In this document: one piece after another, positions 8,525-49,919 of the stretch
Numbering within the stretch: the stretch's first letter is position 1
Layout: every line of letters starts with the position of its first letter
From: an uncultured Prevotellaceae bacterium
Lineage (GTDB): Bacteria > Bacteroidota > Bacteroidia > Bacteroidales > Bacteroidaceae
Direction: 5' to 3'
DNA length: 64,000 nt
Assembly (NCBI GenBank): GCA_902775475.1
Contig: CACYME010000005.1
Coordinates: forward strand, 29,642-93,641
Translations under genes and position numbers: made by a program
The notes under the pieces: model-generated
Told to the model about the DNA's origin: nothing
Databases searched by the model: none
What the model saw: the letters and a program-made list of their open reading frames with translations, nothing else

Positions 8525-8550
8525 AATGAACGAAAGCCATAATTAAGAAT

Positions 8551-26841: not shown

Positions 26842-26849
26842 AATTTATG

Positions 26850-26857: not shown

Positions 26858-27121
26858 CCAAAACGCTCTCAAACAACCTTGTCTATTTTTTACAAATCTG
26901 CAGTTTGTTAGAGATTCTAAACGAATTTTAATCAATTTTTCACACGTAGGGTCGTTTTGTAGCAACTCCGATGCCAGCGGAAAACATTTAGACATCTGAA
27001 CAAATGAAAGAAATTTTCGTAATTTACACAAGAGCCCACTTGAAACGTACTTTTCGAACGGGGCAGAAAAGGCACGATAAGGTTTCTGTCCTTTTCTGGT
27101 TGGGGGGGGCAGTGTAGCTAT

Positions 27122-27587
27122 GAAGCCTCATTGAAATCTTAAAAATAAATAATTTTAAGGAAATATTGAACACCCGCCCCTCGAAAATACGCGAAAATTT
27201 CGCGCGAGAAAGTTTTTGGCTGAAAAAACGCGAATTTTAAGAGGGCTTTCTAAATGGCTGGTTATCTGATATTTATGATTAATTTGCCAAAATTTTGCGC
27301 TTTTTCGCTTTCAAAAGTCAACGCCTTTTGAAAATTTGGCGTTGACTTTTGAAAATTTGGCGTGCTTAAAAATGAACGAAACAAGGCAAGAAAAGCGAAA
27401 AATGAGGCAAAAAAAGCTGAAAAAGCTGCACAAAACCACCACAAGTGTGCCATTTTCGGCCCTTTCGTCACCTGCTTCCACGCCCATCGCCCATCGAAAA
27501 TCGTCCGAAACGCCCATTTGTCGCTCCAGAATGCTCCTGAATCGTGAACTTTTCATTTAAGGGAATTTAAGGAAATTTTGAACACTC
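27122..27587 (-). repeat. Copy C of the ~0.45 kb AT-rich repeat family; left bracket of the 22-kb cluster
   Basis: Collinear with copy B. The 23-nt end repeats are at 27151-27173 and 27563-27585, and the core hairpin at 27309-27355. It lies between the divergent hybrid sensor and AraC genes. Confidence 0.85.
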
Positions 27588-27612
27588 ACTTAGACAAACA
27601 TCGTATTCTCTT

Positions 27613-27710
27613 AACAACGAATTAAGACGAATGGAACGAATGGCAAGGATTATACGAATTGCACTAATAGCAACGCGCAGCAATTCGTCCAATTCGTTAA
27701 ATTCGTTGTT
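27613..27710. promoter_or_regulatory. ~100-bp palindrome built from ACGAAT / ATTCGT words upstream of the AraC gene
   Basis: AACAACGAATTAAGACGAATGGAACGAATGG..TACGAATTGC - 17 nt - GCAATTCGTCCAATTCGTTAAATTCGTTGTT. The inner 9-bp arms are perfect and the outer 22-nt arms nearly so. Confidence 0.5.
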
Positions 27711-27881
27711 CATATAAATCATTTCGGTGTTTAGAAGGGACTACGAAAACGGGCTAAACGGGTGTTATAAACAGACAAACTCGTTGTATAGAAATGGCAA
27801 ATTGTCTGTTTTTACCTCATTTTGTAAGAAAGCGACAATTTTTTGTAAATTTTAGACAATAAGATTTCTAATAATTCTCAC

Positions 27882-27889
27882 TAACTTTG
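27882..27889 (+). promoter_or_regulatory. -7 promoter box TAACTTTG, the only such box found by eye in front of or inside the 22-kb cluster
   Basis: Matches TAnnTTTG, 13 nt upstream of ATG 27902. The TTG start at 27887 used by the ORF track lies inside the box. Confidence 0.55.
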
Positions 27890-27901
27890 CAACAACAGAA
27901 A

Positions 27902-28315
27902 ATGCTCATTTATGTGTTCATCAAAATGAATCAATTTAAGCATATCGAAGAACAGCTCCATCAGCTCCAGCTGAGCACCGCCGAGAAGGCTTTTCTCGAC
28001 GATGTGAGGACCTACATCCTGAGCAACATGGCCGAGGGTCACCTCTCCGTGGAGTCGGTTGCTGAAGGGCTGTTCATCCACGAGTCTAAACTGCGCCGCC
28101 GCATCGCCCAGTCCACGGGGCTCACCCCCCGGATGTTCCTGGCCGTGGTGCGCATGGAGCGCGCCTGCGAGTTCCTGACCACCTATCCCGCCATGACCAT
28201 CGAGCAGATTGCCTACGAATGCGGCTTCGCCGACCACAGCCACTTCACCCACTCCTTCCGCCGGCTCTTCGGCATGAGCCCCACCAGCTATGCCAGACAG
28301 CTGTCTGCTTCCTGA
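27902..28315 (+). CDS. Small AraC/XylS-family HTH transcriptional regulator (DNA-binding domain plus short N-terminal region)
   Basis: LFIHESKLRRRIAQSTGLTPRMFLAVVRMERACEFLTTYPAMTIEQIAYECGFADHSHFTHSFRRLFGMSPTSYARQ. Confidence 0.85.
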   Translation: MLIYVFIKMNQFKHIEEQLHQLQLSTAEKAFLDDVRTYILSNMAEGHLSVESVAEGLFIHESKLRRRIAQSTGLTPRMFLAVVRMERACEFLTTYPAMTIEQIAYECGFADHSHFTHSFRRLFGMSPTSYARQLSAS

Positions 28316-28343
28316 GAACAATCACCTCCAAAATAAGTGCGAT

Positions 28344-30152
28344 ATGAAAAAGACACTTCTCCTGCTGACCACCCTGCTGAGCCTCGGTCTCGGTGCATAC
28401 GCGCAGAGCGCATGGACCGGGCCCGACGCCCACCAGTATAACGACGAGACCGTCGTCTATGCCACGCTGAGCATCAACGGCCATGCCGCCGGAGCCGACA
28501 ACGCCGACTACGCCGTGGCCGCCTTCATCGGTGACGAATGCCGCGCCGTGGCCGAGGAGGCCATGACGGGTGTCGGCGGCACGACGCTCTTCGTGCTGCG
28601 CGTGGGCGGCGACCGCGAGGCCGACCAGGGCACCACGCTGCGCTTCGAGGCCCGCTACAAGGCCAAAGGCACTACCTACGCCGTCAGCGCCGCCACCGCC
28701 GTCACGTTCAACAGCGAGAGCTGGGGCCGCCCGTCGCTGCCCGTCGTGCTCAGCGGCGAAGGCTACACGCCACACACGTCGGTCACTGGCTTCGAGTGGA
28801 GCCTCAGCGGCCAGCCCTACAACCGCGAGACTGTGCAGCTCAGGCTGACACCACGGCCCGCCAACGCCACGTTCAGTCCGGCCGACCTGCGTTTCCGCTA
28901 CACCTCCGACTACAACTGGGAGCAGGTGTGGCAGATTGTCGACTTGCAGCTGGCCTCGCGCGAACCTCTTATATATAATGTCACGTTCCAGGTGCCCATG
29001 GGCGCCGACATCAAGGCCTACTGGGCCGACGAGCCCGACGTGGAGGTGCCCCTCTGGCCTGCAGGCGAGACCGAGGCCTACTGCGCCATGACAGCGTGGT
29101 TCCGCCTCGACCTCAAGGAGGGCTGGCAGTGGCGCTCCAACCCCTGCGGCTATCTCTGGGACGACGACCTCGAAGCGGGCTTCGGCCCCTACCTCATCGA
29201 GGCCCGCACGCAGGACGAGCTGCTCTACAACGACCCCTCGTGGGGCTACTTCGGCACGATGATGGAAGGCAACGGCATCGACGACAAAATGGCCTACAAG
29301 GTGCGCATGGCCCAGGACTACCGCTCGCGCACTTTCGGCTCCACCGTCGGAACGGGTGGCGACCCCTTCGAGCTGCCCGTCAGCGAAGGATGGACCTGGA
29401 TGCCCTCGCCCTACCTCTACGACCGTCTGCTGCAGAACATCTTCCAGGCCGACCAGCTCGTTGAGGGCATGGTCATCATCTCGAAGGAAGAAGGCTCGGC
29501 CGAATGGAACGGCAGCCAGTGGGAAGGCGACCTCGAAGTGCTGCCCACCGAGCAGAGCTTCCTCCTCTATATGCCTGAAGGAGCCAGCTTCAACCTCCGC
29601 TTCAACCCCGAGCGCTACATGCCGCAGGGCAACGAGACAGCCCCCACCCCCTCGCGCCGCTCTGAGCAGGCTGAGGGCGCTGCCAGCGTAGGCCACGAGG
29701 TGGCCCGCCGCTTCCGCGACAACCTGACCATGGTGGCCACGCTGTCGCTGGCGGCTAATCAGGCTGACTACCAGCTGCGTGCCTACGTCGGCGACGAACT
29801 GCGCGGCGTGGGCCATGCCGGCCAGGCCGACCGCGTGTTCGTCACCGTCCATGCCGATGGTGGCGAGCGCGTCAGTTTCCGTCTGGCCGACCTGCACACG
29901 GGCGCCGAGTATGCCGTCGACGAAACGGTCGTCGTGGCACAGCCGCGCCTCGGCTCGCTGCGACAGCCCGTGGAGCTCCACGCCACAGCACTCACGCAGG
30001 GCATTGCCGACCTCCCCACGGAAGCCACGGCAACAGCCGCCACCCAGCGCTACGACCTGCAGGGCCGCAGCCTGTCCTCCTCTTCCCCTTCGAAGGGCAT
30101 CGTCATCCGCCGTGCTGCCGACGGCAGCGTCCGCAAGGTGGTGCAGCGGTGA
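28344..30152 (+). CDS. Exported protein of unknown function with a T9SS-like C-terminal tail (602 aa), paralog 1
   Basis: Signal peptide MKKTLLLLTTLLSLGLGAYAQS. N- and C-terminal copies of a ~90-aa FxGDECRG module and a central GWQWRSNPCG...GWTWMPSPY domain. Tail is RYDLQGRSLSSSSPSKGIVIRRAADGSVRKVVQR, resembling the S8 peptidase tail at 15340-15456. Confidence 0.7.
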   Translation: MKKTLLLLTTLLSLGLGAYAQSAWTGPDAHQYNDETVVYATLSINGHAAGADNADYAVAAFIGDECRAVAEEAMTGVGGTTLFVLRVGGDREADQGTTLRFEARYKAKGTTYAVSAATAVTFNSESWGRPSLPVVLSGEGYTPHTSVTGFEWSLSGQPYNRETVQLRLTPRPANATFSPADLRFRYTSDYNWEQVWQIVDLQLASREPLIYNVTFQVPMGADIKAYWADEPDVEVPLWPAGETEAYCAMTAWFRLDLKEGWQWRSNPCGYLWDDDLEAGFGPYLIEARTQDELLYNDPSWGYFGTMMEGNGIDDKMAYKVRMAQDYRSRTFGSTVGTGGDPFELPVSEGWTWMPSPYLYDRLLQNIFQADQLVEGMVIISKEEGSAEWNGSQWEGDLEVLPTEQSFLLYMPEGASFNLRFNPERYMPQGNETAPTPSRRSEQAEGAASVGHEVARRFRDNLTMVATLSLAANQADYQLRAYVGDELRGVGHAGQADRVFVTVHADGGERVSFRLADLHTGAEYAVDETVVVAQPRLGSLRQPVELHATALTQGIADLPTEATATAATQRYDLQGRSLSSSSPSKGIVIRRAADGSVRKVVQR

Positions 30153-30223
30153 ACGACTCCTATCGACAGTAAGCATAAAATCAGAAACAATCAATATTAA
30201 CAACCAAAAAAACAGTAACAGTT

Positions 30224-33200
30224 ATGAAAAAGCTATTATCACTGCTGATGGTCTTATGCTGCGCCATCGGAGCATCAGCACAGCAAGGCTGGACAGCCCG
30301 CACGGGCCAGTCGCAGGACAGAACGGTCGTCATAGCCGACTTTTCCGTAACCAATGGTGCGTCTGTCTATGAAGGCAACTGGCGAATTGGCGTCTTCGTC
30401 GGCGGCGAGTGCCGCTTGGTAACGAGTGACAACGCTCAAGGCGTACTGACGCACATGAACAACCAACAGTTCCTGATGCTCGAGGTTCCCGGCAACTTCG
30501 ACGATGAGAACGACGAGGGCAAGGAAATCGTCATCAAAGTCAGTTCATCGATGGGCGACGTCTACACCCTGAAGCCCGACCAGACGCTGACATGGCAGCC
30601 TGAGACCACCTACGGCGTAGGCTCCGGCCCCCGTGTGCAGTTGGCACTCACCCTTCCCGCCGAAGTCACTCTTAGTGGTTTCAGAATCGATGCAGGAAAC
30701 AGTGTCGACCTGACAAACTTCCTGAACGTCAGTCCCGCTAATGCTCAGATTCCTGAGAATCTCATCTGGTACGTTGGCAACAACTACTATCAGCCAGGTG
30801 ACTACGGTCAGTTTGCCACCATCAGCGGCAGCACGCTGACCGCCGTGAAGCCCAACCTGAGCGAAGGCGAGAACCTGCCTATTCCCTACGGCTTCGTCAT
30901 CAATGCAGGCAACTACATGCCACTAATCGTCAATGGCAACCCTGTTGAGAACGCATCTTTCTACATCGAGCAACCCGCTACGACCCTGACCATCGTCACC
31001 GAGACATTTGAGGTAGAGAGGGGCTTTGCTGAGGAACTGACCGTCTTCATGCGCAACCAACACAACTACAAGGCCTACAGCACCACCCCAGAAGAAATTA
31101 CCGACGAGGTGAAGTGGGAAATTGAGGATGCTACCTACATCCAGGAAGATCAGGGCACGTGGGAACCCATCAAGGGCGGCACCACCCGCATCCGCCCCTA
31201 CATTGAGCGCGCTGACGGCAACCTCTACCCCGAGGGCAACAAGTGGATTACGGTCAACATCATCGTGCCCGTAGAAGAAGCTTATTTCAACTGGCCTTAC
31301 GACCCACAGACGCAGCAACAGATCACCTTTAAGTGCAATGTTGGCGACGAGAACATCCTTCAGCACCTAGACCAATATGTGAGAATTCTTCCTTTGGATG
31401 CTACCGACAGGACTTACACCATCACCGACATCAGCTCTTACGGTTCGCCTCAAGAACTTGGCTACAGGCCTGTACTTTATGTCAATTCCGACAATACCAT
31501 CGAAGCCAGTGCGTCTGGTTATGCCGAACTCCTGATTCAACCCAATGGCATTGGTGGCGAAGATTTGGCATTCACTGTATTTGTAGAAGTGGACGATCCT
31601 CTCAAGGAGGTAAGCTTCACCGAGGATCCCCTTACATTCGACTCAGCAACCAACACGCTCGAAACCATCACCAGCGGAATCCGTCGTAACATCATCTGGC
31701 AAGATGAGTACAAGGCCTTGCAATTCGGAACGCTTAGCGTAGCGGGTGTTCTCACTGGCTCTGGTGAATTCTCGGCCAACGGTCCCATGCTGACCCTGAA
31801 CAACACGGAAATCCCAAAGGGCGAGAGCACCATTACCGTCAGACTCGGATGGAATGACTACAGCCAATACGACGGTACGGAAGAGTCCATCGCTCAGCAG
31901 TGGAACGCAGGCCAGAGCTTCAAGGTCGTCATCACCATGGGCCTCGACCACTTCACCATCACCGTCACCCCAAGCAGCGATGATCCCACCCGCGGCACCA
32001 TCACTCTGACGCCCGTGCCTGCTGACGCCGACTTCGACTGGGCCGACTACGCAGACATCCTCACCGTCAGCAGCGATTACTACGATAGCTCTTGGCACAC
32101 CATCGACATCAAGGCTGGAGGCGAAGGCATCTACACCTACGTGGCGCTGCTGCCTGGAATGTTCGCTGCCAACTGCGACCCTGACGAAGAGGACGTGTTT
32201 TTTGAGGTTCCCTACAGGGTCACCTTCGCCAACGGATGGCAGTGGAAGAGTAATCCTTACGGCGATATGATGTCGAACAAGAACCTCTATAGTTACTTTG
32301 GTGACGACCTTGCTGAGGCCCGCACCTACGACAAGCTGCTTTACAACGATACCGAATGGGGCTACTGGGGCTCGCTCTACGACAGCCAAGAAATCGCCAT
32401 CGAGCAGGCTCAGATGTATAAGGTGAAGATGAATGCCGCCCATGAGACCTTCCTATACGGTGGTAATAGTGCAGAATGGAACGAATTTAACGTTGCCAAG
32501 GGCTGGAATTGGATTGGCTCGCCTTACTTCTATAAGCGCACGCTGGATCGCATCACAACTCCCGTCGATGGAATGATCGTCGTGGGCAAGACAGGCTCGG
32601 CCGAATACGACTACAACAGCAACACCTGGAGCGGCGATTTGAAGGCCATCGAGCCTGGACAGGGCTATTACGTCTACATGCCCGCAGAGACAGAGACCGG
32701 AACCATTATTCTGGAATGTGAGGTCTTCGGACACATGAATCAGAGCGACGATGGCGGCGCCGGTGCCCGTGCTGCCCGCCAGAGCGTATGGAGCTACGAT
32801 CACTCGCGCTTCGCCAACAACATGACGATGGTGGCCGAGGTGAGCGACCTTGACAATCCCGAGGAGTACACCATCGGTGCATTCGTCGACGGTGAGTGCC
32901 GCGGTGAGGGTATCTTCGAGGATGGACGCGCCTTCATCACAGTACACACCGACGGCGGCGAGCAGGTGGCACTGCGCCTGCACAACGAGCTCACCGGCGA
33001 ATACACTGACATCGACCAGACCATCAGCACCACGGCCATGCGCCTCGGCTCGCTGAAGGCTCCCGTGCAGCTCACGGCACAAGGCGTCGTCACCGGCATC
33101 AGCACCGTAGAGGGCGCACAGCAGCCGACAGAGCGCTTCGACCTGAACGGACGCACCGTGAAGGGCAACCACAAGGGCATGACCATCGTGCGCCAGGCCG

Positions 33201-33229
33201 ATGGCAGCGTCCGCAAGGTAGTTCGCTAA
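30224..33229 (+). CDS. Exported protein of unknown function with a T9SS-like C-terminal tail (1001 aa), paralog 2
   Basis: Signal peptide MKKLLSLLMVLCCAIGASAQQ. It has the same terminal modules (IGVFVGGECRLV; IGAFVDGECRGEG) and central domain GWQWKSNPYG...GWNWIGSPYFY as paralog 1, plus ~400 extra residues of Ig-like segments. Tail is RFDLNGRTVKGNHKGMTIVRQADGSVRKVVR. Confidence 0.7.
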   Translation: MKKLLSLLMVLCCAIGASAQQGWTARTGQSQDRTVVIADFSVTNGASVYEGNWRIGVFVGGECRLVTSDNAQGVLTHMNNQQFLMLEVPGNFDDENDEGKEIVIKVSSSMGDVYTLKPDQTLTWQPETTYGVGSGPRVQLALTLPAEVTLSGFRIDAGNSVDLTNFLNVSPANAQIPENLIWYVGNNYYQPGDYGQFATISGSTLTAVKPNLSEGENLPIPYGFVINAGNYMPLIVNGNPVENASFYIEQPATTLTIVTETFEVERGFAEELTVFMRNQHNYKAYSTTPEEITDEVKWEIEDATYIQEDQGTWEPIKGGTTRIRPYIERADGNLYPEGNKWITVNIIVPVEEAYFNWPYDPQTQQQITFKCNVGDENILQHLDQYVRILPLDATDRTYTITDISSYGSPQELGYRPVLYVNSDNTIEASASGYAELLIQPNGIGGEDLAFTVFVEVDDPLKEVSFTEDPLTFDSATNTLETITSGIRRNIIWQDEYKALQFGTLSVAGVLTGSGEFSANGPMLTLNNTEIPKGESTITVRLGWNDYSQYDGTEESIAQQWNAGQSFKVVITMGLDHFTITVTPSSDDPTRGTITLTPVPADADFDWADYADILTVSSDYYDSSWHTIDIKAGGEGIYTYVALLPGMFAANCDPDEEDVFFEVPYRVTFANGWQWKSNPYGDMMSNKNLYSYFGDDLAEARTYDKLLYNDTEWGYWGSLYDSQEIAIEQAQMYKVKMNAAHETFLYGGNSAEWNEFNVAKGWNWIGSPYFYKRTLDRITTPVDGMIVVGKTGSAEYDYNSNTWSGDLKAIEPGQGYYVYMPAETETGTIILECEVFGHMNQSDDGGAGARAARQSVWSYDHSRFANNMTMVAEVSDLDNPEEYTIGAFVDGECRGEGIFEDGRAFITVHTDGGEQVALRLHNELTGEYTDIDQTISTTAMRLGSLKAPVQLTAQGVVTGISTVEGAQQPTERFDLNGRTVKGNHKGMTIVRQADGSVRKVVR

Positions 33230-33231
33230 AT

Positions 33232-33385
33232 GTTAAGGGTTGAGTGTTGAGAGTTAAGAGTTGAGAGACTTTAGACTGGGCGGCAGGACTGACGTCTCTC
33301 AACACTAAACACTGATCACTCAACACTCAACCCTAATTCAGCAGAACTAAAGTCTCTCAACTCTCAACCCTAAACACTCAAACCT
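33232..33385. terminator. Three-arm GTTGAGA-word hairpin element (one left arm, two alternative right arms) between paralog 2 and the OMP gene
   Basis: The left arm GTTAAGGGTTGAGTGTTGAGAGTTAAGAGTTGAGAGACTTTAG has two possible partners. One is GTCTCTCAACACTAAACAC..CACTCAACACTCAACCCTAA (33293-33335). The other is CTAAAGTCTCTCAACTCTCAACCCTAAAC (33348-33376). It belongs to the same family as 20822-20895. Confidence 0.6.
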
Positions 33386-33388
33386 AAT

Positions 33389-35188
33389 ATGATGAGCAGG
33401 AAAAATAACAATAAGGTACGCGCGTACATTAAATTTATTCTATGTACCGCAGCAATGCTGACCTCTTCCGGATGGAGGGGGCAGGGGGAGGTCTCGGCCC
33501 AGTCCATCACGCTGGGGCAGAACACCATCTCAAACATCGCCAAAAGCGACCCGCTCATCATCACTGGCGCCATCGGCACGCAGAACACCTATTACCACTC
33601 CTCCATAGGCAATGGCTACCGTTCACCGTGGGCCAACTCGTTCTACGCCGACCTTAACATCTCGCTCTATGGCATCTCCATGCCTTTTGCGTTCTACTAC
33701 AGCAACAACAACTCGTCGTGGAGCTTCCCCCACATCTCGTTCCACATCGACCCTACGTACAAGAACTGGCGCGGCCACTTCGGACGCTCCAATATGGGCA
33801 TGCACCCTTATCTGATGAACATGTCGTTCAACGGTGTGGGCCTGGAGTACAACTCCTCAAAAGTGCGCGTAGGAATCTTCCACGGCGAACTGCGCAATGC
33901 CATCAACGACGACCCCGAAAACCCCAGCGCCCGCAACCCGCAATATCGGCGCATGGGCTGGGGCATCAAGGCTGGCTATGGTTCCGGCCGCAACCACCTC
34001 GACCTGTCGTTTCTGCGAGCCTACGACCGCATCAACTCCATCGACCCGCGCTGGCAGGAAAGGATTAATCCACAAGACAACATCGCCGTGGCCGTAAAGG
34101 GCGGACTCGGCATCACCCGCTGGCTCACACTGCAGGGCAACCTGGCCTGGACAGCCTTCTCATCCGACAAGCGCGCCCAACGCCTGCATACCGAGCAAAC
34201 CGACCGCTGGGACAAGGTGTTCGACGCCCGTTACACCTCGCTGATGCGCATTGCCGGCGACATCTCAGCCACACTCAGCCTGAAGGGCTTCAACACCACT
34301 GTGTTCTATCGCATGGTGCAGCCCGACTACACCACCCTGGGACTCTACTACACCTCGAACAACTACCAGTCGCTGGGCATCAACGCCTCGACCACCCTCT
34401 TCAAGAAAGTAACCCTCTCGGCATCGTTCAGCGGCCAGGAGGACAACATAACGCGCCGCCAGCTCTACACCACGCGCGGCTTCGTCTACAACGCTACGGC
34501 TTCCACATCGCTCACAGAGAACCTCGCCCTCACTGCTGGCTACAGCGGCTATCGGCAGCTGCAATCCGACTGCAAAGCCCGCGTCAACGACACCACGCGT
34601 GTCAACCGCATCATGCACTCACTCTATCTCACCCCCTCCTACACTATCGACGGCGAAACCACCGAGAACACCTTCGCGCTCTCGGCCAGCTTCACCAAGA
34701 ACAAAGACCTGAATCGCTTCGCCACAGGCATCAGCGACGTGACGACATTCTCGGCCGGACTCAGCCACTCCATCATGGTGAAGCCATGGGAGATGTCGTT
34801 CTCGACCTCGCTATCCCACCAGCAGTCGAAGGGCTACCAGACACGCTACTCTTCCGAGATTCTCAGCTTCTCCACGGGACGCTCGTTCCTCAAGGAGAAG
34901 AACCTCTATACGTCGGCTGCCCTGTCGCTCTGCTACAACGACGTCCGCAACCAGCAGCGCAACCTCTCTGTGGGAGCCGACATCACGGCAGGCTATACGC
35001 TGGCCAAGGTGCACCAGTTCTCCTTCGCGGCCGGATTCAACAAATACAGCGACACCAACATCTCGGCCGACTACACTTCCATGGGCACCACCGAGATCAG
35101 CCTATCGCTCAACTACAACTACACCTTCTCGCTGCTCCAGCTGAAGAGCAAAAAGACGGCAGATGCGGCCTCCGGCCAAAATAAATAA
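33389..35188 (+). CDS. Putative outer-membrane beta-barrel protein (599 aa), family not recognised
   Basis: Signal peptide ...CTAAMLTSSGWRGQGEVSAQS. The sequence is Y/S/N/G/T-rich with alternating-hydrophobic strands throughout, e.g. LSASFSGQ, LTAGYSGY, FSAGLSHS and ISLSLNYNYTFSL near the C-terminus. Confidence 0.55.
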   Translation: MMSRKNNNKVRAYIKFILCTAAMLTSSGWRGQGEVSAQSITLGQNTISNIAKSDPLIITGAIGTQNTYYHSSIGNGYRSPWANSFYADLNISLYGISMPFAFYYSNNNSSWSFPHISFHIDPTYKNWRGHFGRSNMGMHPYLMNMSFNGVGLEYNSSKVRVGIFHGELRNAINDDPENPSARNPQYRRMGWGIKAGYGSGRNHLDLSFLRAYDRINSIDPRWQERINPQDNIAVAVKGGLGITRWLTLQGNLAWTAFSSDKRAQRLHTEQTDRWDKVFDARYTSLMRIAGDISATLSLKGFNTTVFYRMVQPDYTTLGLYYTSNNYQSLGINASTTLFKKVTLSASFSGQEDNITRRQLYTTRGFVYNATASTSLTENLALTAGYSGYRQLQSDCKARVNDTTRVNRIMHSLYLTPSYTIDGETTENTFALSASFTKNKDLNRFATGISDVTTFSAGLSHSIMVKPWEMSFSTSLSHQQSKGYQTRYSSEILSFSTGRSFLKEKNLYTSAALSLCYNDVRNQQRNLSVGADITAGYTLAKVHQFSFAAGFNKYSDTNISADYTSMGTTEISLSLNYNYTFSLLQLKSKKTADAASGQNK

Positions 35189-35201
35189 TGATAAATGATA
35201 T

Positions 35202-44200: not shown

Positions 44201-44237
44201 AGACATCATCTCACATAAATATGGAATTATATGGTAA
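35202..44237 (+). CDS. Giant exported protein, 3011 aa, unknown function
   Basis: A single uninterrupted ORF starting 13 nt after the OMP stop. Signal peptide-like MMALALSFIIYHLSFSRAAAQD. Charged low-complexity linkers occur, such as EKAGDKAGDKAGGKDGSGGKSGSGDKGKEEEH at 38217-38335. No catalytic motif was recognised by eye. Confidence 0.8.
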   Translation: MAMNKKERIKSFCSMIKDSRWMMALALSFIIYHLSFSRAAAQDVTLQVTPVQSVLPPQAGKYIDNLGRYFRVTVINNTDAAQRIYFGVQVQQKFPNDVLWMSTNVETMHIPQQPIVLSPNQHKTLNSIELKHLFDHFDSHDIFVREGRYKNILDSEFGLLDEGQYELQLTAYKWDPELSSPVVLNNQTDGLALFNICYEAEAPTFISPIRSLVPDGLSDLAITKINKKQAQIRFEWTQPTLNCNATMVNYRYRIRFVELGSMMPDEAMEENTITFLEQRELLTNSYSIPTPYVAQMIADTAAYGKVYAMQVTAYTPYQNKNSLNVALIKNEGKSDIFLFQLYDPEKADRSVTKGEAKGSDVIAEDGGVLYRFEQPTLTSPQFPDNRSRLMFVGDSIKVEWRKAWFAGGKGERQDTVNFEYTVNLFKGNTADTREVILKTTKPFYTKTTKELKDTIRWKAIQSEIKSGDYCILRVTAKPTNKPDSIFKMQGDSLNFKDFAFTSHFDETYMCGRNTATVENKEPIAEKPKAGTRYKIGQWNLELIDEPSRPLEFDKEKKTLKGFGRIEWSVMKPKAYIAVKFDSLKVNTDGIVFDGICKTYAKSSQKVDGTEYTEEQIVDSLFSLASLDNIFGSLSIPKSVQDRVTGYAKDEATNLAKSYNLGKYYTQYKKAETTWENWQKGDLGDLYFPFEAPDEIKKYLPKDFSLQIGNMTFSPSYSVMNLIGAITLPNSDIFEDQNVLVFGAPRLCISPDRFFPEDGVLALLSNFVISDPSSDFKLVFKAPSDPLNPVTEDGCFIKWENDEFDALGMEIAMTIPNTTRVVDGKTQKDVPALLDLWTTIEAGGNACDFIAEGTMTPFQVNDLPDWTFTVGKKIVFDHHLERNGKNMPTLKTVEEWSNNTYDLKEVTNYKSWEAWQGVYIDEISVQFPKWAVIGNGEKGVTLGGQHMIFDASGVTAKFFAKDVLNAETGKCGGWKFTIDEANVQIVQNNFDNCSIKGGFGVPLLGKVSQEKAGDKAGDKAGGKDGSGGKSGSGDKGKEEEHQDTDIDYFCQIRNMTDPESVETYYTYDNDGKKIEHTRKKYYEEKNRYGYVFTTQNASKAKLGLNFYIADMTLLEKQTYFLVESVDTVINKEETQYTQVELCMAGDITIAGIDQLNGTKSDSQKSSFAKRVEEINKSLPLPLKLPGIHFAKMRLSNKALNDWKNLGVDLENTHQKGIEAQEKWEQDNKKLYEFSAGKEIALGKECYFNYGEWSLASAEKKLGPFTFTLKEFKPDMKGDSIMLDVEGQIGLMDGKFAVGAGIRLQAMAHTQGSISDWYVDDGEVKFKSFEMNVDWEVFKFSGRLDLEDSGTDKGYGGNINLEIKDLFKLDVAGGYYNHKGISEEEKKTKIADAKLRAAKEDHNENLYKKYYNPDEDFYSWGYFLATVGGQGLRIDPIVINRITGGFFYNCNPVVGQKDAKGRPSYTGKPTAKYGTIGVVFGVGITTSGGEETIQGDFDVVVIYDKKNSRMSHFEFNGDISAVGDIVHAKASIIYENNDADRYFCMNLTMTVGLDSDAMVEKLGVISNELSALKNELDKFQGSISSVVMKKPSKDEMKGDLDKMESDYGNKTKKADENKTDEKVSKGAQKSTVSYGKTDIYVEFKVTYRENGSDTYPTKWHLYLGEPKKEKRCLFQTIDYKDENGIIAVNIGSDAYLCVGNELPGNGQLPDIPAEITEFLNGHKNSAVSTGADMSKVNNARSKVIKDMLQNAGTKGGVMVGASTWGFVNVELGLFYGYMKAIGGFDISLVKYANPQYCANYGGYMGINNWYAMGQLYAYLAAKFGLHIKLGKLIDEHVDLVDAGIGGLFKLGLPSPTWIEGQARVKVSLLGGLVKVDKGFNFSAGSKCVPFKGNALDDFALFGDFTVADDDVNEGWKKENAVSVKDAKNIQFSTYANLGERYRLYDPTTGGELSEETGYSEDQMSLYASRTYIFDINKARVLEENKNANYNISLGARLYEIPLDADIIVDRKTYNYYKNGTFTGNGFKGVVKPNDDNFLKYLYKNDKGGLYSWNNAIMSRWMKNQNLDCQEKEMNEDDFEGDEALWNVRYWKGYNLKRESERETWHDHYDGVEEMIKPFLVADTMQYQIMPGFYLPLLVPGGVTIKESTGRNFHLTLSNLKPGKLYILELNGQAFEVLNGKRVWTKMTVTTKKKGKEKMREEYVRWEQKRLVFFRTKTEAEEQEAIPNNPTDIQPYVALAYPSAPGNKLFQTKAEGEKNRANIVDIKRPTIALNTDIRSKLSSGKLEWVLQGYAYNSTGTRAIKQQTIENEFKDVSGCVNMQPKKDFDLSSLQNTYPELDDFQILLKHTYPVYKGTTKVAASGESMDELTARYAAVHGEGALYDYIINYYNNLVSDEAKLDMSGATLDKKEATCFGIILGLYLAGSQQAVNDLQTNLLSLLGTRFVDQEVYKDTTVYLANMWFKGLPEASWHLGNNGPTAYEKQFVGIRPFNTPEFTFGGWNPDDDYTTGNQSEENGQPMRIADPYLYFAYLSKHVFIGDVALDKYDFDDVKVPHASESLTFSFNGHGISGSLIPGSKYRDKRMSTLRGEMYDTWRKAWYYKNNTNYSDLVYPLPLYPDEDWGLTSNNQTFISQRYNKFNNWDVNYVGSAVRRSDKTKDGKGGKYLAQQFTAPYYIAETLSRQMGKIANQIYNIYKSSSDNKTVNKAMIAWQNLHRGQYLSVSSCGFEVKVPYYQFPLIFGDCLSGDRTFSKSIKDNADNLITKFRNDRKTSNLYFFRLMGGTPLDKYDKKNYPYIYNSSGNVTQDLFSASAALKTVKKFDYLAYRVNSYDLSTNRYEYNTGIGNNGTYAGTYPNTDVSVTLVDNNNNNTNGYYINMEYAMRTLGQPDVYINGVPNQNWGDGNSAIVTATALSNLSRWMQDNVPDLYAIYKESNNANKIKMLQEWAKANDPTLGKENKALHDIMLWDKNAVSYYKVQNQINLIYGMPATYPESEPKFPNTLFKDIISHKYGIIW

Positions 44238-46540
44238 GCAATAAGAATATCCTCGTTGTTGGGGCCACGCTGCTCATGAGCGGCTCCACGGCCATGGCCC
44301 AGTCTACTGACAGCATTGCCAGCCCAGACATCCTGACGGTAGCCGACAGTACCCAGCATCGTCAGCTGGTCGACGCCGACACCATCATCTACCAGGAGCC
44401 ATCCATCATCACCACGAAGATTCGCGCCCTGGCCCGCACCTATGGCGACAGCATCGCGCTGCGGTGGGTGCCCGAAGACTACGTGTCATGGCGCTACCTC
44501 TGCCAGACGGGCGTCAACATCCTTCGCACGGAGAGCAACGCCGAGACCTTTGCCATCGACACGCTGGCCTATGCGCTGAAGCCCCTCAGCGAGGAAGCGT
44601 TCAGGGCGAAGTATGCGCCCAACGACAGCAACGCGCTGGTGGCTCAGGGCATCCTCTATGGCGAGGGTCGCCTGGGTGCCAACCAGACCGAGAACTTCCC
44701 TGGCTCCATGGGGGCTTCGATGGAATACAACAACGAGCAGGATCTCTCATTTGCCTTCGCCATGCTCGTGGCCGAATGGCGCCCCGACCTGGCCCGCGAC
44801 ATGGCCGTAGGCTTCCTCGACCGCACCGCGCAGCCCGGCAAGATGTACGACTACTACATCCAGCCCACGCAGTGGGACACCGACGGCCGCCTCATCTTCG
44901 AGCCTGGTGTGGCTGAGCGCGTGAGAAACCATGAATACACGCCCGACATCTTCGACCCTCGGATGGTAGACTCCATCTCCAGTCCGCGCCGCCACGTGCT
45001 GGGCTGGTGGGACGACAAGTACTCCACTTATGACATCTATCGTCGCCACGTGAGCGATGCCGATGGCAATCCCGTTGACGGGACGTGGAAGCGCATCAAC
45101 CAAAAGCCCTATCTCTCCATCATCGAGCTGCCAGAGGGCGACGACTACAAAGCCTACTCCGACTCCGTGCCCAGCTTCGGCGTCTACGAATACTTTGTTG
45201 TGGGCCACGACCCCTTCGGCACCGCCAACCCATCGCTCCACCATCTCAAGGTGAACGTCTACGACAACGAGCCGCCATCGGCACCACAGCTGAAGGGTAT
45301 CGTCGTCGACTACCCCGACGACGACATCCGCGGACGAACGCGGGCACACATCATCTGGGAGAAGGACACGATAGAGGGCGACCTACAGGGCTACGTGGTC
45401 AGATACTACAACGCGAAGATCAGCGGCGAGACTTGGATAGAGCTGAACGACAAGATGATTCCCCCGACGGACACGATGTTTGTGGCCGACGTCACCGGCC
45501 TGCGCACGGGCATGCTGCAGGTGGCGGCCTACGACCTGTCGGGCAACGAGGCCACGTCGTTTTCGCAGCTCATCGAGCTACACGACTTCAAGGCTCCCGC
45601 CCCCCCTGACTCACTAACGGCACAGGTGGTGGTGCCACAACTGACACCGCTCTACAAGAAAGAGATGAAGCATGCCTACGTCATCCTACGCTGGAAGCCC
45701 AACCCTGCCGACGACGACATCATGCACTACGACATCGCCTTCGCCAACGACACCACCCACGCCTTCCAGCGACTCAACGAGCAGTCCATCAACGCCCAGT
45801 GGTTCATCGACTCGCTGGCCCTCGACGCCAACCAGAAATACATCTACTACAAGGTGCGCGCCACCGACTATTCTACCAACGAGGGCGAGTGGAGCCCCTG
45901 GATTCAGGTGAAGCGCCCACACCTCACACCGCCCACACAGCCCCACTTGGAACGCTCGAACAACAGCGACGAGGAGGGCATCCACATGGAGTGGGTGATA
46001 GGAACTGATGCCGACATGGAGTATCACAAAGCCTTCCGCCGCCGTGGCGAGGTGGGTGAATGGGAGCTGATAGGCCGCTACGACCACGACTCGCTGACGG
46101 CCCACAGCTACACCATCGTCATCGACGACCGGCCAGAGTTCGACCGCCAGCAGCGCTACTACTACTACGTGGAGTCGTTCAACTCGTCGCCCTTCACCTC
46201 GAAGAGCCTCGCCGTGAGCTTCCTCTTCCAGGGCCCGAAGATATGGGACGTCAGCCTGAAACTCATCGGCGACTACGACGAGAAGACGAACCTGACGCGA
46301 CTGGTGTGGGACACGGGCAAGCTGCCCTTCGATGCCCCCTACTACTACTGCATCTACCGGCGAGCCGCTGGCGAGGAGCGCTATGAATACATGGGCAACG
46401 TGCCAGCTGACACACAGGAATTCACCGACCAGCGCCTGAAGCCGGGCGAGCAGGCCGAGTACTATGTGATGATACAGTGGCGCGACGGACGGCAGAGCAC
46501 ACTGTCGAATACCATCACGGTGAAGAGAAGTGAAAAGTGA
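44231..46540 (+). CDS. Exported protein made of repeated fibronectin-type-III-like modules (769 aa)
   Basis: The start overlaps the giant gene stop (ATGGTAA). Signal peptide NILVVGATLLMSGSTAMAQS. There are 4-5 repeats of a W..(D/P)..D..GY..Y......W......Y.Y.V.A.D..GNE pattern, e.g. AHIIWEKDTIEGDLQGYVVRYY...LQVAAYDLSGNEATS and YVILRWKPNP...IYYKVRATDYSTNEGEWS. Confidence 0.6.
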   Translation: MVSNKNILVVGATLLMSGSTAMAQSTDSIASPDILTVADSTQHRQLVDADTIIYQEPSIITTKIRALARTYGDSIALRWVPEDYVSWRYLCQTGVNILRTESNAETFAIDTLAYALKPLSEEAFRAKYAPNDSNALVAQGILYGEGRLGANQTENFPGSMGASMEYNNEQDLSFAFAMLVAEWRPDLARDMAVGFLDRTAQPGKMYDYYIQPTQWDTDGRLIFEPGVAERVRNHEYTPDIFDPRMVDSISSPRRHVLGWWDDKYSTYDIYRRHVSDADGNPVDGTWKRINQKPYLSIIELPEGDDYKAYSDSVPSFGVYEYFVVGHDPFGTANPSLHHLKVNVYDNEPPSAPQLKGIVVDYPDDDIRGRTRAHIIWEKDTIEGDLQGYVVRYYNAKISGETWIELNDKMIPPTDTMFVADVTGLRTGMLQVAAYDLSGNEATSFSQLIELHDFKAPAPPDSLTAQVVVPQLTPLYKKEMKHAYVILRWKPNPADDDIMHYDIAFANDTTHAFQRLNEQSINAQWFIDSLALDANQKYIYYKVRATDYSTNEGEWSPWIQVKRPHLTPPTQPHLERSNNSDEEGIHMEWVIGTDADMEYHKAFRRRGEVGEWELIGRYDHDSLTAHSYTIVIDDRPEFDRQQRYYYYVESFNSSPFTSKSLAVSFLFQGPKIWDVSLKLIGDYDEKTNLTRLVWDTGKLPFDAPYYYCIYRRAAGEERYEYMGNVPADTQEFTDQRLKPGEQAEYYVMIQWRDGRQSTLSNTITVKRSEK

Positions 46541-46581
46541 AGAGTGAAGATTTTGCTTCCGCTGAAAAAACGCAAAAGGAT

Positions 46582-47379
46582 ATGAAAAGGAGAATGTTTT
46601 GGCTTCAGAAGCGCTGGGCATCGTCACTCAGCCTGATAGCGATAAGTGCATTGTTGGTCGCCTGCGGCGAATACTGGGAGGGCGGCGAGCCCGTGGCTGC
46701 CCGGAAGATGACGCTGGGGCGAAAGGTGGTGAACATGGTGGTGGGCGACCGCTACCGCATTCCCGTCTTCTTCGAGCCCGACACGCTCTCGAACCGCGCC
46801 GTGTTCTGGCAGACGGAGGACAATGAGATAGCCCTGGTGGAGAACGACACGGTAGTAGCCGTCAACGTGGGCCTCACACGGGCCTACGCACTGAGCGTCA
46901 GCGACCGACAGACGGACTCATGCTGGGTGAACGTGTTGCCACCGATGTACATCAACTCTAAGCTGTACCCCTACGACATGGTCATCTATGCCGACGTCAC
47001 CATCCATGGCCACCACTACACCCAGGCCGACGAAGACTCGCTCATCATCGCCGCCTACTCTGGCGATGACCTGCGGGGCATCGGCAAGATGCGCCAGTGG
47101 AACGACAAAGACTACATGGAGCTGCGCATCTGGAGCCCCATCCGCTATGGCGGCGAAGTGCAGCTGCGCTGCTACTACCGGGGCAAGGCCCTGGCCGAGG
47201 TATTCCCCGACGTGCTGGAGTTCGACGGCGACGCTCACGGCACGCTCTCGAACCTCTACCCGCTGGTGCTCGACAACAACGCCGAGGAATACCTGCCCGC
47301 CATCGACCCCGACGACTACGACCCCTACCACGAAGATGGCGATACCATCCATGTGGTCATAACCGACCCAGAACCTTAA
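46582..47379 (+). CDS. Lipoprotein with a Big_2-like Ig domain and one copy of the FxGDECRG-type module (265 aa)
   Basis: Lipobox MKRRMFWLQKRWASSLSLIAISALLVAC. Big_2-like segment VVNMVVGDRYRIPVFFEPDTLSNRAVFWQTEDNEIALVENDTVVAVNVGLTRAYAL. Module is LIIAAYSGDDLRGIG...MELRIWSPIRYGGEVQLRCYY. An alternative GTG start at 46537 would overlap the upstream stop. Confidence 0.65.
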   Translation: MKRRMFWLQKRWASSLSLIAISALLVACGEYWEGGEPVAARKMTLGRKVVNMVVGDRYRIPVFFEPDTLSNRAVFWQTEDNEIALVENDTVVAVNVGLTRAYALSVSDRQTDSCWVNVLPPMYINSKLYPYDMVIYADVTIHGHHYTQADEDSLIIAAYSGDDLRGIGKMRQWNDKDYMELRIWSPIRYGGEVQLRCYYRGKALAEVFPDVLEFDGDAHGTLSNLYPLVLDNNAEEYLPAIDPDDYDPYHEDGDTIHVVITDPEP

Positions 47380-47396
47380 AAAAAAGCATAACCATT

Positions 47397-49832
47397 ATGA
47401 AGACGATCATATCCCGACTCTGCTGCTTCATAGGCCTCACGGCCATGATGGCCTCATGCAACCTCTTCATCGACGACGACGAGCTGGAGGCCAACGAGTT
47501 CAGAAACGTTCCCGTGCATTCGGGCGAAGGCTACGACGCCCCAGTAAAAGAACACGAAGGCGGCTGCGACATTGAATATCAGTTCAATGAAGACGTGCGG
47601 GTGGTGGCGGCCGAGACGCAGGATGCCTACATCACCAGCGTCAAAGCGGACGAAGACAACATGTCGCTCATCGTGAGCTTCCGCGCCGACACGCCAAAGG
47701 AACTGCTTCCAAAAGCCGGTGAAATTTTCCTCAGCACAGCGACCAACAAGTTCCCCATGGGAGCCAACCACCGAGTACTGGAGTGCGAGAAGGAGGGCGA
47801 TGGCTACCAATGCGTGATGGCCTTCGCCAAGCTGGAGGAAACGTTCAAGACGCTGCACATCAATGGAAGCGTGGACTTTGGAACAGACTCTTTCCAAGTT
47901 GCCAGTCCACCTTACGAGGAAGAAGCTGGTGCACGCACAAGAGCCGAGGGTGATGACGCCTCCGTTACGGCTGATGTGAAATGCGAAGGAAACGAAATAT
48001 CCTTCAGCTTGCCTTTTAGCTTTAGCCTCAACTACCTCCACCCTAACGGACTTCATGGTGAAGCTACTGCAAGCAAGGAAAAGAATTTCTATAAGGTGAC
48101 CAACGAATTCAAGTTCGACGATTTCTCGCTCGACAACATGAAGGCCGACTTTGTTCAGACCATAGAGGAGAGTGCAGGCATCGTTATCTCCGGCGGGTTC
48201 ACAAAGTCAGTCAGACTGACCAAGAATTCCTTATATATCCTGAGGAACAAGCCCGTTCTCATCGGATCCGTGTTGGTATTGGTATTTTGGATCTCCGCCG
48301 ATGTGTATCTTGACTTGGATCTTTCCGCCACTATCACCATCAGCAAGCACAAGAAATACCAAAACATCTACCACCTCGACCTATACGAGCAAAAGTTAAC
48401 CAAGGAGACCAAAGTGCTGATTGACAAAGAGTGGCATCTGGATGCGAGCATCGATGGCAGCTTTGGCCTAAGAGTGGAACTGACAATCGGCATAGGCATT
48501 TATGGAAAAGTGCTTTCCGTCAGATTCATTCCTACGCTTAGGGCGATGTTCACACTCACCACTCCCATCGTCTCACACGAATCAGGTCAGTTGTGGTTCG
48601 ATCTCTCTAATGCTGCGGGACTAACCTTCACAATTGATTTCTCAGTAAAACTTGGCGTATTCCTCGATTTGTCACTGAAAACTTTGTTTGGTGACAGTAG
48701 TAAACCCATGAAGAATAAGGAACTGATAGACAAAGTGAAGAAGGGAGACCCAGAAGCAAAGAAAAAGTTCGACGAATTGGCCAATCAAGCCAGCAACAAT
48801 GACCATATTGACGAAAAGGGTGCATACCTCAACTTAGGGCCATGGATACTCTTCACCAAAACGTTTACATGGTATCCCAAATTGGACGACAAATCATTCC
48901 AAATCATCAGGTCATGGGACAAAGACAATAAGCAGATGACGTTCTCTGCCCAATACAAGCTCTCAAAATGGGGGTTTTGGACATCCATCATGGGCAGGCA
49001 TTTCACGCCAGGTTTGATGATTAAGAGGGGGAAAAAATACATCACCACTATCTTCCCCAATGAAGGAGGAACAGAGGCGACATGCTCGCTCGATAAAACA
49101 TACACCTTCGACATCCCTATCGACTATGATGAAAAAGACATCATGTACACAGCATATCCATGCTTCTTCGAATTGCCATGGAAGAGCAATATGCCCGATG
49201 CTTTCGACAAAGGTCTCCCCTTCTGTAACACCTCGCCCGAAATAGTTATCAACGAAGTAGTACCCTACGACCTGCATAAGGAGTGGCTCTCCGAGAATGG
49301 AGAGTTAGTTTTTGTTGAAGACGATTTCTATGACTACGCTTACACCTTTGATATCAAGACTCTTACCGCCATCAAAGGCGCAGCGAATATAGATTCTTGG
49401 CAAATCAATGAGTTATACACGGGAACAAAGCATAAATACAGTTCGAAAAAAGACAAAAAGAAAGACGGCATATACATTATGTACTGGGACTTCACGGTAT
49501 ACCGGAAAAACGACAAGAAATTTCCTATGTACCTGTCTTTCTACCCGATATTTTCGCTCAAGGATAGCAATAGTTCATGGACGACAGGAAGGAAATACGA
49601 TATGACAATATGGAGCAACAGGACTTATGAAGTGACACAAGACAGCTACGGAGGCAGCTTTACAGACACTTTCTCGCGCATGCGAGATGCCAATCCAGAC
49701 AGCGACGACGAGAAGAGCGTGACGAAATGCCAGTTGAATGCCATTGAATGCGACGGCGAAATCATCTGGCAACGGCCCGGCAGCAACTTCCAGAAGCCCG
49801 AACCATCGACCACGCCGTTCCAAAAGCTTTAA
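47397..49832 (+). CDS. Lipoprotein of unknown function (811 aa), mostly AT-rich coding sequence
   Basis: Lipobox MKTIISRLCCFIGLTAMMASC at ATG 47397. The upstream 100 codons in the ORF track overlap the previous gene and are Arg/Pro-rich shadow. The beta-rich middle reads VLVFWISADVYLDLDLSATITIS...GLRVELTIGIGIYGKVLSVRF. Confidence 0.7.
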   Translation: MKTIISRLCCFIGLTAMMASCNLFIDDDELEANEFRNVPVHSGEGYDAPVKEHEGGCDIEYQFNEDVRVVAAETQDAYITSVKADEDNMSLIVSFRADTPKELLPKAGEIFLSTATNKFPMGANHRVLECEKEGDGYQCVMAFAKLEETFKTLHINGSVDFGTDSFQVASPPYEEEAGARTRAEGDDASVTADVKCEGNEISFSLPFSFSLNYLHPNGLHGEATASKEKNFYKVTNEFKFDDFSLDNMKADFVQTIEESAGIVISGGFTKSVRLTKNSLYILRNKPVLIGSVLVLVFWISADVYLDLDLSATITISKHKKYQNIYHLDLYEQKLTKETKVLIDKEWHLDASIDGSFGLRVELTIGIGIYGKVLSVRFIPTLRAMFTLTTPIVSHESGQLWFDLSNAAGLTFTIDFSVKLGVFLDLSLKTLFGDSSKPMKNKELIDKVKKGDPEAKKKFDELANQASNNDHIDEKGAYLNLGPWILFTKTFTWYPKLDDKSFQIIRSWDKDNKQMTFSAQYKLSKWGFWTSIMGRHFTPGLMIKRGKKYITTIFPNEGGTEATCSLDKTYTFDIPIDYDEKDIMYTAYPCFFELPWKSNMPDAFDKGLPFCNTSPEIVINEVVPYDLHKEWLSENGELVFVEDDFYDYAYTFDIKTLTAIKGAANIDSWQINELYTGTKHKYSSKKDKKKDGIYIMYWDFTVYRKNDKKFPMYLSFYPIFSLKDSNSSWTTGRKYDMTIWSNRTYEVTQDSYGGSFTDTFSRMRDANPDSDDEKSVTKCQLNAIECDGEIIWQRPGSNFQKPEPSTTPFQKL

Positions 49833-49865
49833 TCGTCCTTTACAGAGGACAACACCACACCTACT

Positions 49866-49919
49866 CCCCGCTGCCATTCCTCCACTCACAATGTGGCAAG
49901 GATGACAGCGGGCTTTTTC
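49866..49919 (+). terminator. Hairpin plus T-run terminating the cluster
   Basis: CCCCGCTGCCAT - 27 nt - ATGACAGCGGG followed by CTTTTT, 34 nt after the stop at 49832. There is one mismatch in an 11-bp stem. Confidence 0.5.

Follow-up and report, generated by a model that had tools for sequence, protein, structure and literature searches.

Wide outer-membrane barrels that hold another protein are known from MtrB, the FimD/PapC ushers and LptD. In MtrCAB and LptD/LptE the partner protein sits in the lumen of the barrel, and the barrel is encoded beside that partner and a surface lipoprotein; ushers hold and display an adhesive structure; and in two-partner secretion (TpsB/TpsA, as in FhaC/FHA and CdiB/CdiA) the gene for an outer-membrane barrel stands beside one for a giant protein whose N-terminal part is conserved and whose C-terminus varies. 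Here we describe an eight-gene cluster that has points in common with each of these systems, in a 64,000-nucleotide stretch of DNA from an uncultured Prevotellaceae bacterium (assembly GCA_902775475.1, contig CACYME010000005.1). The whole stretch is called the window below, and cluster coordinates are counted within it. The cluster is a genuine envelope system, widespread and so far uncharacterised. Because no cluster protein fits a described system, the cluster probably represents an undescribed means of assembling a surface structure for binding. Tentatively, and at somewhat less than an even chance, we read it as a barrel-dependent display apparatus for a polymorphic giant adhesin, independent of type IX secretion (T9SS), onto which T9SS cargo docks and which is controlled by a hybrid sensor with tetratricopeptide repeats (TPRs) and an AraC-type regulator.

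The open reading frame (ORF) scan gave the following eight genes, all on the + strand:

27902..28315, + strand: AraC-family regulator consisting of the helix-turn-helix (HTH) domain only, 137 aa (HTH_18, PF12833, 82.1 bits, cut-off 33.6)
28344..30152, + strand: P2, putative T9SS cargo paralogue 1, 602 aa (paralogy, module profiles and motifs of a short C-terminal domain, CTD)
30224..33229, + strand: P3, putative T9SS cargo paralogue 2, 1001 aa (same ends as P2, longer middle)
33389..35188, + strand: predicted outer-membrane 26-strand beta-barrel protein, 599 aa (AlphaFold2 model, Foldseek)
35202..44237, + strand: giant exported protein, 3011 aa (signal peptide, conserved N-terminal part of about 2000 aa, variable low-GC C-terminal part of about 1000 aa)
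44231..46540, + strand: exported tandem-FN3 protein, 769 aa (ATGGTAA overlap with the giant gene, i.e. translational coupling; FN3 profile)
46582..47379, + strand: lipoprotein, 265 aa (lipobox LVAC followed by GEYW; Ig-like domain, then a module shared with P2 and P3, aa 127-233)
47397..49832, + strand: lipo8, lipoprotein, 811 aa (lipobox MASC followed by NLFIDDDE; no detectable family)

The gaps between these genes are 28, 71, 159, 13, -7, 41 and 17 nt. The negative value is the ATGGTAA in which the stop of the giant gene overlaps the start of the FN3-protein gene, as read directly from the sequence. A first-pass annotation of the same DNA had described eight co-directional, tightly packed ORFs, and its coordinates and all seven gaps were reproduced exactly.

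A scan of one genome per species yielded at least 144 loci, 80 of which were kept for analysis, with flanks of 10 kb. Nearly all of the 80 belong to metagenome-assembled genomes (MAGs) of rumen or gut Prevotellaceae, joined by the cultured Hallella seregens ATCC 51272, whose locus is L038. For the barrel protein 874 homologues were found, none of them named. A homologue of the giant lies immediately 3' of the barrel gene in all 77 loci with room for it, and in 76 of 76 a T9SS-tailed cargo gene resembling P2 and P3 lies immediately 5' of the barrel gene. The FN3 gene can be seen in 51 loci; the 10-kb flank ends before the gene in the others. The order giant, FN3 protein (735-810 aa), lipoprotein of about 260 aa and lipoprotein of about 760-850 aa was recognized in six contexts (with homologues of lipo8 down to 29% identity). 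In all six, lipo8 is the last gene of the cluster and unrelated genes come next each time, so the cluster ends where the first-pass annotation had placed its end. The neighbourhood is therefore strongly syntenic (77/77, 76/76 and 6/6) rather than one whose genes occur independently. The view that the genes form one conserved functional unit is supported by this comparison of gene order.

A profile of the giant's core, searched against 1.84 billion representative proteins (50% identity clusters), matched at least 1,792 of them at E <= 1e-3; at E <= 1e-30 the count is 863. The matched proteins are between about 1,900 and 4,970 aa long. Two or three copies of the whole system, divergent from one another, occur in single MAGs (L002, L008 and L011 in RUG12472, and the pairs L012/L013, L015/L018 and L017/L019), and the giants of these loci are 32-59% identical to that of the window. 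In one distant locus (L089) the order is response regulator, Reg_prop/Y_Y_Y kinase, 560-aa barrel, 1,979-aa giant, 694-aa FN3 protein, 182-aa lipoprotein and 577-aa protein, with no T9SS cargo upstream. Compared with the window, its barrel shows 27% identity (E 3e-56), its giant matches over the core (E 2e-38) and its FN3 protein matches at E 1e-39. Two others (L090 and L091) have similar reduced layouts, judged by gene order and size only. The genes for the barrel, the giant (2,000-4,900 residues) and the FN3 protein always stand together in this order. Because distant metagenomic relatives keep such reduced layouts, these three proteins are the deeply conserved core of the system. The cargo genes, one or two for T9SS-tailed Ig-like proteins ahead of the core, and the two lipoprotein genes after it are additions of the Prevotella lineage. 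At positions 1-6011 of L090, a distant form of the core, with products of 606 aa, 336 aa and 1895 aa (the giant), stands beside two tyrosine-integrase genes, which hints that some versions of the core are carried on mobile elements.

All cluster products were searched against Pfam, NCBIfam, PADLOC and PHROGs. Pfam and NCBIfam recognized only the AraC HTH and, weakly, fn3 in the 769-aa protein (PF00041, E 1.4e-5), and PADLOC and PHROGs gave only generic Ig/FN3 matches. PDB sequence searches with the barrel and the giant returned nothing credible, the single barrel match being at chance level (E 0.21); the family profile of the giant likewise gave one chance-level match (E 0.38), and that of lipo8 gave none. 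Pfam searches of 14 relatives of the giant plus five distant relatives found DUF6603 alone, below threshold, and those of 21 relatives of lipo8 gave noise. DUF6603 (PF20248), a family that is itself uncharacterised, scores 22.2 and 18.8 bits in the giants of L066 and L038, below its cut-off of 27, and has one precomputed match, in P0240; the window giant and the distant relatives have no match, and a limited literature search found no mention of the family. The first-pass annotation had been unable to name a family for the barrel, the giant or the 811-aa lipoprotein, and the outcome was the same with these four databases and PDB. The hidden Markov model (HMM) searches that it proposed as a check for known systems gave no match above threshold to TamAB, SprA/Sov, an usher or a known adhesin operon. 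The conclusion that the cluster encodes envelope proteins outside any named system is thus supported.

The 599-aa product, which had been described as beta-barrel-like, is predicted by AlphaFold2 (AF2) to be a barrel of 26 strands with no additional domain (predicted local distance difference test, pLDDT, 74; 26-sequence alignment). The top Foldseek match of the model is MtrB (6r2q_B; E 4e-13, template modelling score, TM, 0.51), followed by the FimD/PapC ushers (E 2e-11, TM 0.43) and then LptD. The likeness of the model to MtrB, ushers and LptD is a fold-class resemblance, not homology. The cluster has no sequence homology to MtrCAB or LptD/LptE, contains zero CxxCH motifs (hence no cytochromes) and has a partner protein of 3,011 aa. 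The barrel differs from LptD in lacking both an N-terminal jellyroll and an OstA family match. Although it shares a large-barrel fold with the ushers (TM 0.43), all 599 aa form the modelled barrel, with no plug and no N- or C-terminal periplasmic domains; there is no Usher, PapD or fimbrial Pfam match, and the cluster contains no chaperone or pilin genes.

The 14 relatives of the giant align well over the first ~2,000 residues and poorly beyond, with a peak of conservation at residues 1700-1900, and the mature N-terminus Q-(D/E)-V-T-V-x-V-x-P-V-Q-x-V-L-P-P-Q is kept across relatives. Many relatives of 4,300-4,700 aa (L086 1-6663, P0149/P0156 and similar) carry BspA-type leucine-rich repeats (LRRs) near the C-terminus, in arrays of ten or more DUF285 stretches at about residues 3500-4400; one relative has Ig/filamin-like arrays added. 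In their DUF285/LRR arrays these giants resemble BspA-type LRR surface proteins. However, BspA-type T9SS cargo differs from the LRR-bearing giants, which are without any CTD, and a T9SS CTD-like tail was present in none of 98 giant relatives. Because many relatives have a BspA-type LRR array as their variable C-terminus, the giant is more likely a displayed binding element than part of the base of a surface structure. Over the variable C-terminal third of the giant gene (41000-44000) GC content is 0.49, down from about 0.56-0.59, and for the 811-aa lipoprotein the C-terminal half (48000-50000) has 0.455; these drops suggest cassette exchange with lower-GC relatives.

A conserved N-terminal part of ~2,000 aa, a variable C-terminus and a dedicated outer-membrane partner gene are also what contact-dependent competition would call for, with the barrel exporting the giant as in two-partner secretion and the variable C-terminus acting as a delivered effector. 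The several divergent copies per genome and the low-GC variable parts would suit such a function, but we regard it as quite improbable. No toxin, TPS, POTRA/ShlB, Rhs or PADLOC match was found; the recognizable variable regions are LRR or Ig arrays, i.e. binding modules; and the genes downstream encode conserved exported proteins, not small, variable cytoplasmic immunity proteins. Two-partner secretion itself is also a poor fit, in that Pfam and NCBIfam show no TPS domain, POTRA or ShlB-type Omp85 match, the predicted barrel has 26 strands instead of 16, and the cluster has its outer-membrane protein gene first and three further conserved exported proteins.

In an AF2 model of giant residues 1100-2000 (pLDDT 75, 48 sequences), long amphipathic antiparallel strands are grouped into four blocks of 4-7, with a long helix after each block. 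The model's Foldseek matches in PDB include 36-strand SprA (8gl6_A; E 1e-4, probability 0.98) and 30-strand SlpA (TM 0.19-0.20) and the beta-belt of ApoB100 (TM <= 0.2); phage tail-fibre-like models were also returned (TM about 0.12). With TM <= 0.2 throughout (PDB and BFVD), these matches were discarded as evidence of fold membership, and the amphipathicity of the strands does not tell a membrane barrel apart from a sandwich sheet.

Two explanations other than display start from this model. The giant itself could be a very large outer-membrane barrel like SprA or SlpA, forming a new pore for the cargo or for other proteins, with the 599-aa barrel as an accessory. SprA and SlpA are its best PDB matches and the core has about 24 long amphipathic strands, but the TM scores are only 0.19-0.20 and the long helices split the sheet into four blocks. 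Moreover, no SprA_N match (nor any other Pfam or NCBIfam match to SprA/Sov, the resemblance being weak and structural, TM 0.19) was found, the cargo already has T9SS signals, and the C-terminus is variable, not a conserved beta-signal; we consider such a pore very unlikely. Alternatively, the giant could be an AsmA/TamB-like, periplasm-spanning beta-sheet groove that sits on the barrel and moves lipids or proteins to the outer membrane. Its core of long amphipathic beta-hairpins, the weak match to the lipid-wrapping ApoB100 beta-belt and the presence of an outer-membrane barrel partner, as TamA is for TamB, are in keeping with such a bridge. This, too, has little probability: neither the window giant nor the 14 relatives have a DUF490, TamB or AsmA match, no Omp85/POTRA match was found, TamB, YhdP and LetB are absent from the top 50 Foldseek structures, and the predicted barrel has 26 strands, not 16. 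Multiple copies, a variable LRR-bearing C-terminus, sensor control and T9SS adhesin neighbours are, furthermore, unsuited to a housekeeping role.

Every product after the regulator had been said to carry an export signal, and our reading of signal peptides and lipoboxes, made by eye, agrees. Signal peptides of the signal peptidase I (SPI) type were recognized in both cargo proteins, the barrel, the giant and the FN3 protein, and Gln occupies position +1 in all five (cleavage contexts, with the gene start in brackets: AYA↓Q (28344), ASA↓Q (30224), VSA↓Q (33389), AAA↓Q (35202) and AMA↓Q (44231)). Under the Bacteroidetes 'Q-rule', Gln follows the signal-peptide cleavage site (pyroglutamate N-termini), and the five predicted sites fit this rule. 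The other two products have lipoboxes, LVAC followed by G in the 265-aa protein and MASC followed by N in the 811-aa protein; the pattern used was [LVI][ASTVI][GAS]C ending the signal peptide, and both predicted lipoproteins were judged to conform to it. At the lipid-anchor site of the 265-aa protein, C-G-E-Y-F/W is kept in six homologues. The FN3-like repeats reported earlier for the 769-aa protein were confirmed at E 1e-11, the family profile matching the FN3 arrays of titin and RPTP-delta in PDB over positions ~256-603 (E 1.3e-11). Only 24 homologue clusters are detectable for lipo8. Tests of a relation of lipo8 to the giant's hairpin core, and to the 577-aa protein that takes its place in L089, gave no resemblance and no detectable relation, respectively.

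The two cargo proteins are paralogous, as had been claimed (P2 versus P3, BLASTP E 7e-64). P2 consists of a signal peptide, a module (aa 30-136), two GW-type beta domains, a second copy of the module (aa 449-547) and a short CTD (aa 553-602); in P3 the module copies lie at aa 28-140 and 855-952 and the short CTD at aa 958-1001. Among 44 syntenic cargo relatives, Big_2 was recognized in 13 and Por_Secre_tail (PF18962) in five, with SusE/F-like or hyaluronate-lyase beta domains in single cases. The cargo family profile matches the gingipain CTDs 5hfs (E 7e-4) and 7pq4 (E 9e-4) in PDB, and three syntenic homologues reach the TIGR04183 cut-off of 23 (L026, 37.9; L045, 32.4; L038, 23.7 bits). In Prevotella intermedia, 'short CTD' cargo was found by mass spectrometry to be cleaved and glycosylated (PMC11969387). 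The pattern of that class (40-55 aa, cleavage x↓GI, motifs B, D and E; PMC11969387) was compared by eye with the window tails, which comprise 50 aa after Q↓GI in P2 and 44 aa after T↓GI in P3. They contain RYDLQGR and RFDLNGR (motif B, Y/F-D-L-x-G-R), KGIVI and KGMTI (motif D, K-G-x-x-I) and a basic motif E, RKVV(Q)R. The first-pass annotation had called these tails 'T9SS-like'. The relation to T9SS stands, but the wording understated it, in that the tails fit the validated short-CTD class of Prevotella and the family profile matches gingipain CTDs.

Each cargo protein contains two copies of the module of ~100 residues, and the 265-aa lipoprotein contains one. An HMM of the C-terminal domain of the lipoprotein, run over the window's 482 six-frame ORFs, picks out P2 (domain E 1e-7). 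In hhalign comparisons, the lipoprotein module matches the cargo C-terminal module at 96.9% (E 1.8e-10) and the cargo N-terminal module at 97.7% (E 1.5e-12), and the two cargo modules match each other at 98.7% (E 3.3e-16). No PDB relative of the module was found. The earlier claim of a module common to the cargo and one lipoprotein therefore holds (profile-profile E 1e-10 to 1e-16), with a length of ~100 aa and with both cargo proteins included.

Four further features concern the expression of the cluster:

23923..26841, - strand: hybrid sensor, 972 aa, divergent from the cluster (TPR, HisKA/HATPase, receiver and AraC HTH; Pfam domains)
26842..27901, no strand: divergent control region of ~1 kb, AT-rich (GC 0.38), with TAACTTTG at 27882-27889 and repeats
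33230..33388, + strand: intra-operon hairpin in the spacer between cargo and machinery genes (minimum free energy -57.9 kcal/mol, z -6.4)
49867..49919, + strand: terminator-like hairpin and T-run closing the cluster (fold -24.4 kcal/mol, CTTTTT)

In 34 of 80 loci, homologues of the sensor, mostly near full-length, lie directly 5' of the cargo genes, in co-directional or divergent orientation; the adjacent sensor, which the first-pass annotation had linked to the cluster only as a possibility, is a conserved neighbour. The 137-aa AraC protein (also PF00165, 52.2 bits) has no sensing domain, and with 38% identity to the HTH output domain of the sensor it is an HTH-only paralogue of that domain; it could compete or cooperate with the sensor at the same operators. 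In the control region, two copies of an 18-nt sequence (CTTTTGAAAATTTGGCGT) stand in tandem, and a perfect inverted repeat of 17 bp (27309-27354) overlaps them; a direct repeat of 20 nt has its copies at 27154 and 27566. These repeats are candidate operators for AraC-type regulators, as judged from sequence. A motif scan and folding reproduced the earlier description of one TAnnTTTG box in front of the cluster and a hairpin with a T-run behind it. TAACTTTG at 27882 (Bacteroidetes -7 box) is the sole + strand TAnnTTTG across the intergenic spaces of the cluster, and the hairpin 3' of the last gene (49867-49912, -24.4 kcal/mol) is followed by CTTTTT. A generic sigma-70 and terminator scan, also run, is uninformative for Bacteroidetes, and Rfam gave zero matches over the cluster and the control region. 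The 159-nt spacer between cargo and barrel genes forms a hairpin of ~45 bp; hairpins with z <= -4 occur at the same spacer in about 45 of 68 related loci, with differing sequences, which suggests a conserved intra-operon attenuator or mRNA-stability element. The same GTTGAGAG...CTCTCAAC arms as in this hairpin were recognized at 20831-20881, between two convergent genes, and may represent a genome-wide terminator or a repetitive extragenic palindrome (REP)-like element.

Hybrid sensors with AraC output are classic regulators of polysaccharide-utilization loci (PULs), and the conservation of such a sensor beside the cluster raises the case of a substrate-capture complex. The giant, cargo and lipoproteins would then bind plant fibre or host glycans, and the plug-less 26-strand barrel would be an uptake channel, the whole being PUL-like without SusC/SusD and with a sensor like those of hybrid two-component systems. 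The Reg_prop/Y_Y_Y sensor domains of the neighbouring kinase in L089, the rumen and gut origin of nearly all carriers, and the Big_2 and single SusE/F-like or hyaluronate-lyase beta domains of cargo relatives are all compatible with substrate capture. We nevertheless judge it unlikely, as neither the seven proteins nor the 44 cargo relatives contain a TonB-dependent transporter, SusD, glycoside hydrolase or carbohydrate-binding module, the window sensor has TPRs and no glycan-sensing propeller, and an uptake channel leaves the invariant pairing of a barrel with a protein of 2,000-5,000 aa unexplained. The likeness to PULs is confined to the regulator type; Plug, TonB_dep_Rec and SusD are lacking in every cluster protein.

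In the display apparatus that we favour, Sec would export the giant, whose conserved N-terminal part would engage the wide barrel as a conduit or an anchor; analogies for this pairing are MtrB sheathing MtrA, LptD holding LptE and the usher holding a pilus. The variable C-terminal 'head' would be exposed, and its binding target would be a host surface, other cells or a substrate; the FN3 protein and the lipoproteins would serve as a periplasmic or surface scaffold. The PorU sortase would attach the cargo to the surface, and the cargo would join the apparatus via the shared module. Expression would be set by the divergently encoded TPR hybrid sensor together with the HTH-only AraC protein, via the repeat-rich 1-kb control region, and the strong hairpin after the cargo genes would set the ratio of cargo to machinery transcripts. 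The physical contacts, the topology of the giant and the surface exposure in this scheme are what we infer from these comparisons. The first-pass annotation had proposed a multi-protein surface structure with the outer-membrane protein, the giant and the lipoproteins as its base, onto which the T9SS cargo would dock through the module. This proposal is partly supported, by the conserved unit, the envelope products outside any named system, the real module and the conserved sensor; the base and the docking would be further suppositions, and the giant is more likely the displayed element than a part of the base.

Several observations weigh against the display apparatus. The link between giant and barrel is drawn from the adjacency of their genes, and the exposure of the C-terminus from the domain types seen in relatives; the C-terminal 1,000 residues of the window giant contain no recognizable domain. 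No convincing structural relative of the giant core model was found (pLDDT 75, TM <= 0.2); the core may be a stalk, a plug, an amphipathic sheet or a membrane barrel in its own right. The cargo tails of the window fall below the TIGR04183 cut-off and have no match to it, and the T9SS core genes (PorK/L/M/N, Sov, PorV and PorU) lie outside the 64-kb window; T9SS is present generally in Prevotella. Finally, the two lipoproteins are not detectable in the distant L089, so their role may be peripheral.

The genes flanking the cluster are ordinary chromosomal ones (ArgRS, RibD, LytB, MeaB, GH20 and alpha-2-macroglobulin). A phage origin of the cluster was ruled out because these flanks are housekeeping and the PHROG matches merely generic. 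The stretch 2867-9633 contains the alpha-2-macroglobulin-like gene (1885 aa; MG2, A2M and bMG10 domains) and, after it, one for a DUF1573/HYDIN-like Ig protein; both are apparently unrelated to the cluster.

Membership in the TamAB, SprA, usher, two-partner secretion, PUL and Mtr systems was rejected on the features that fail in each. The recognizable pieces (AraC HTH, FN3, Ig, the short T9SS CTD, and LRRs in relatives) are generic, and a limited literature search found no description of a comparable Bacteroidota cluster. Because the features of two-partner secretion, TamAB, SprA, ushers and PULs fail, the pieces are generic and that search found no description, we rate the barrel-giant-FN3 core as new, both as a family and as a system, its folds having been compared against PDB and BFVD and its function inferred. 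A bolder version of our proposal, possible but on balance doubtful, is that the barrel, giant and FN3 protein constitute an unrecognized, T9SS-independent outer-membrane display or secretion pathway for adhesins of 2,000-4,900 residues with exchangeable C-terminal heads (LRR, Ig and unknown folds), into which T9SS-anchored partners plug via the ~100-residue docking module.

Prevotellaceae dominate the rumen and many human guts, and how they attach to fibre, to host surfaces and to each other is poorly known. If the barrel truly displays the giant, the cluster would represent a new route to the Bacteroidota surface beside T9SS and lipoprotein export. The idea is directly testable in the cultured carrier Hallella seregens ATCC 51272. 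If it is true, the giants would form a large reservoir of strain-specific adhesins for colonisation, aggregation, and phage or immune recognition.

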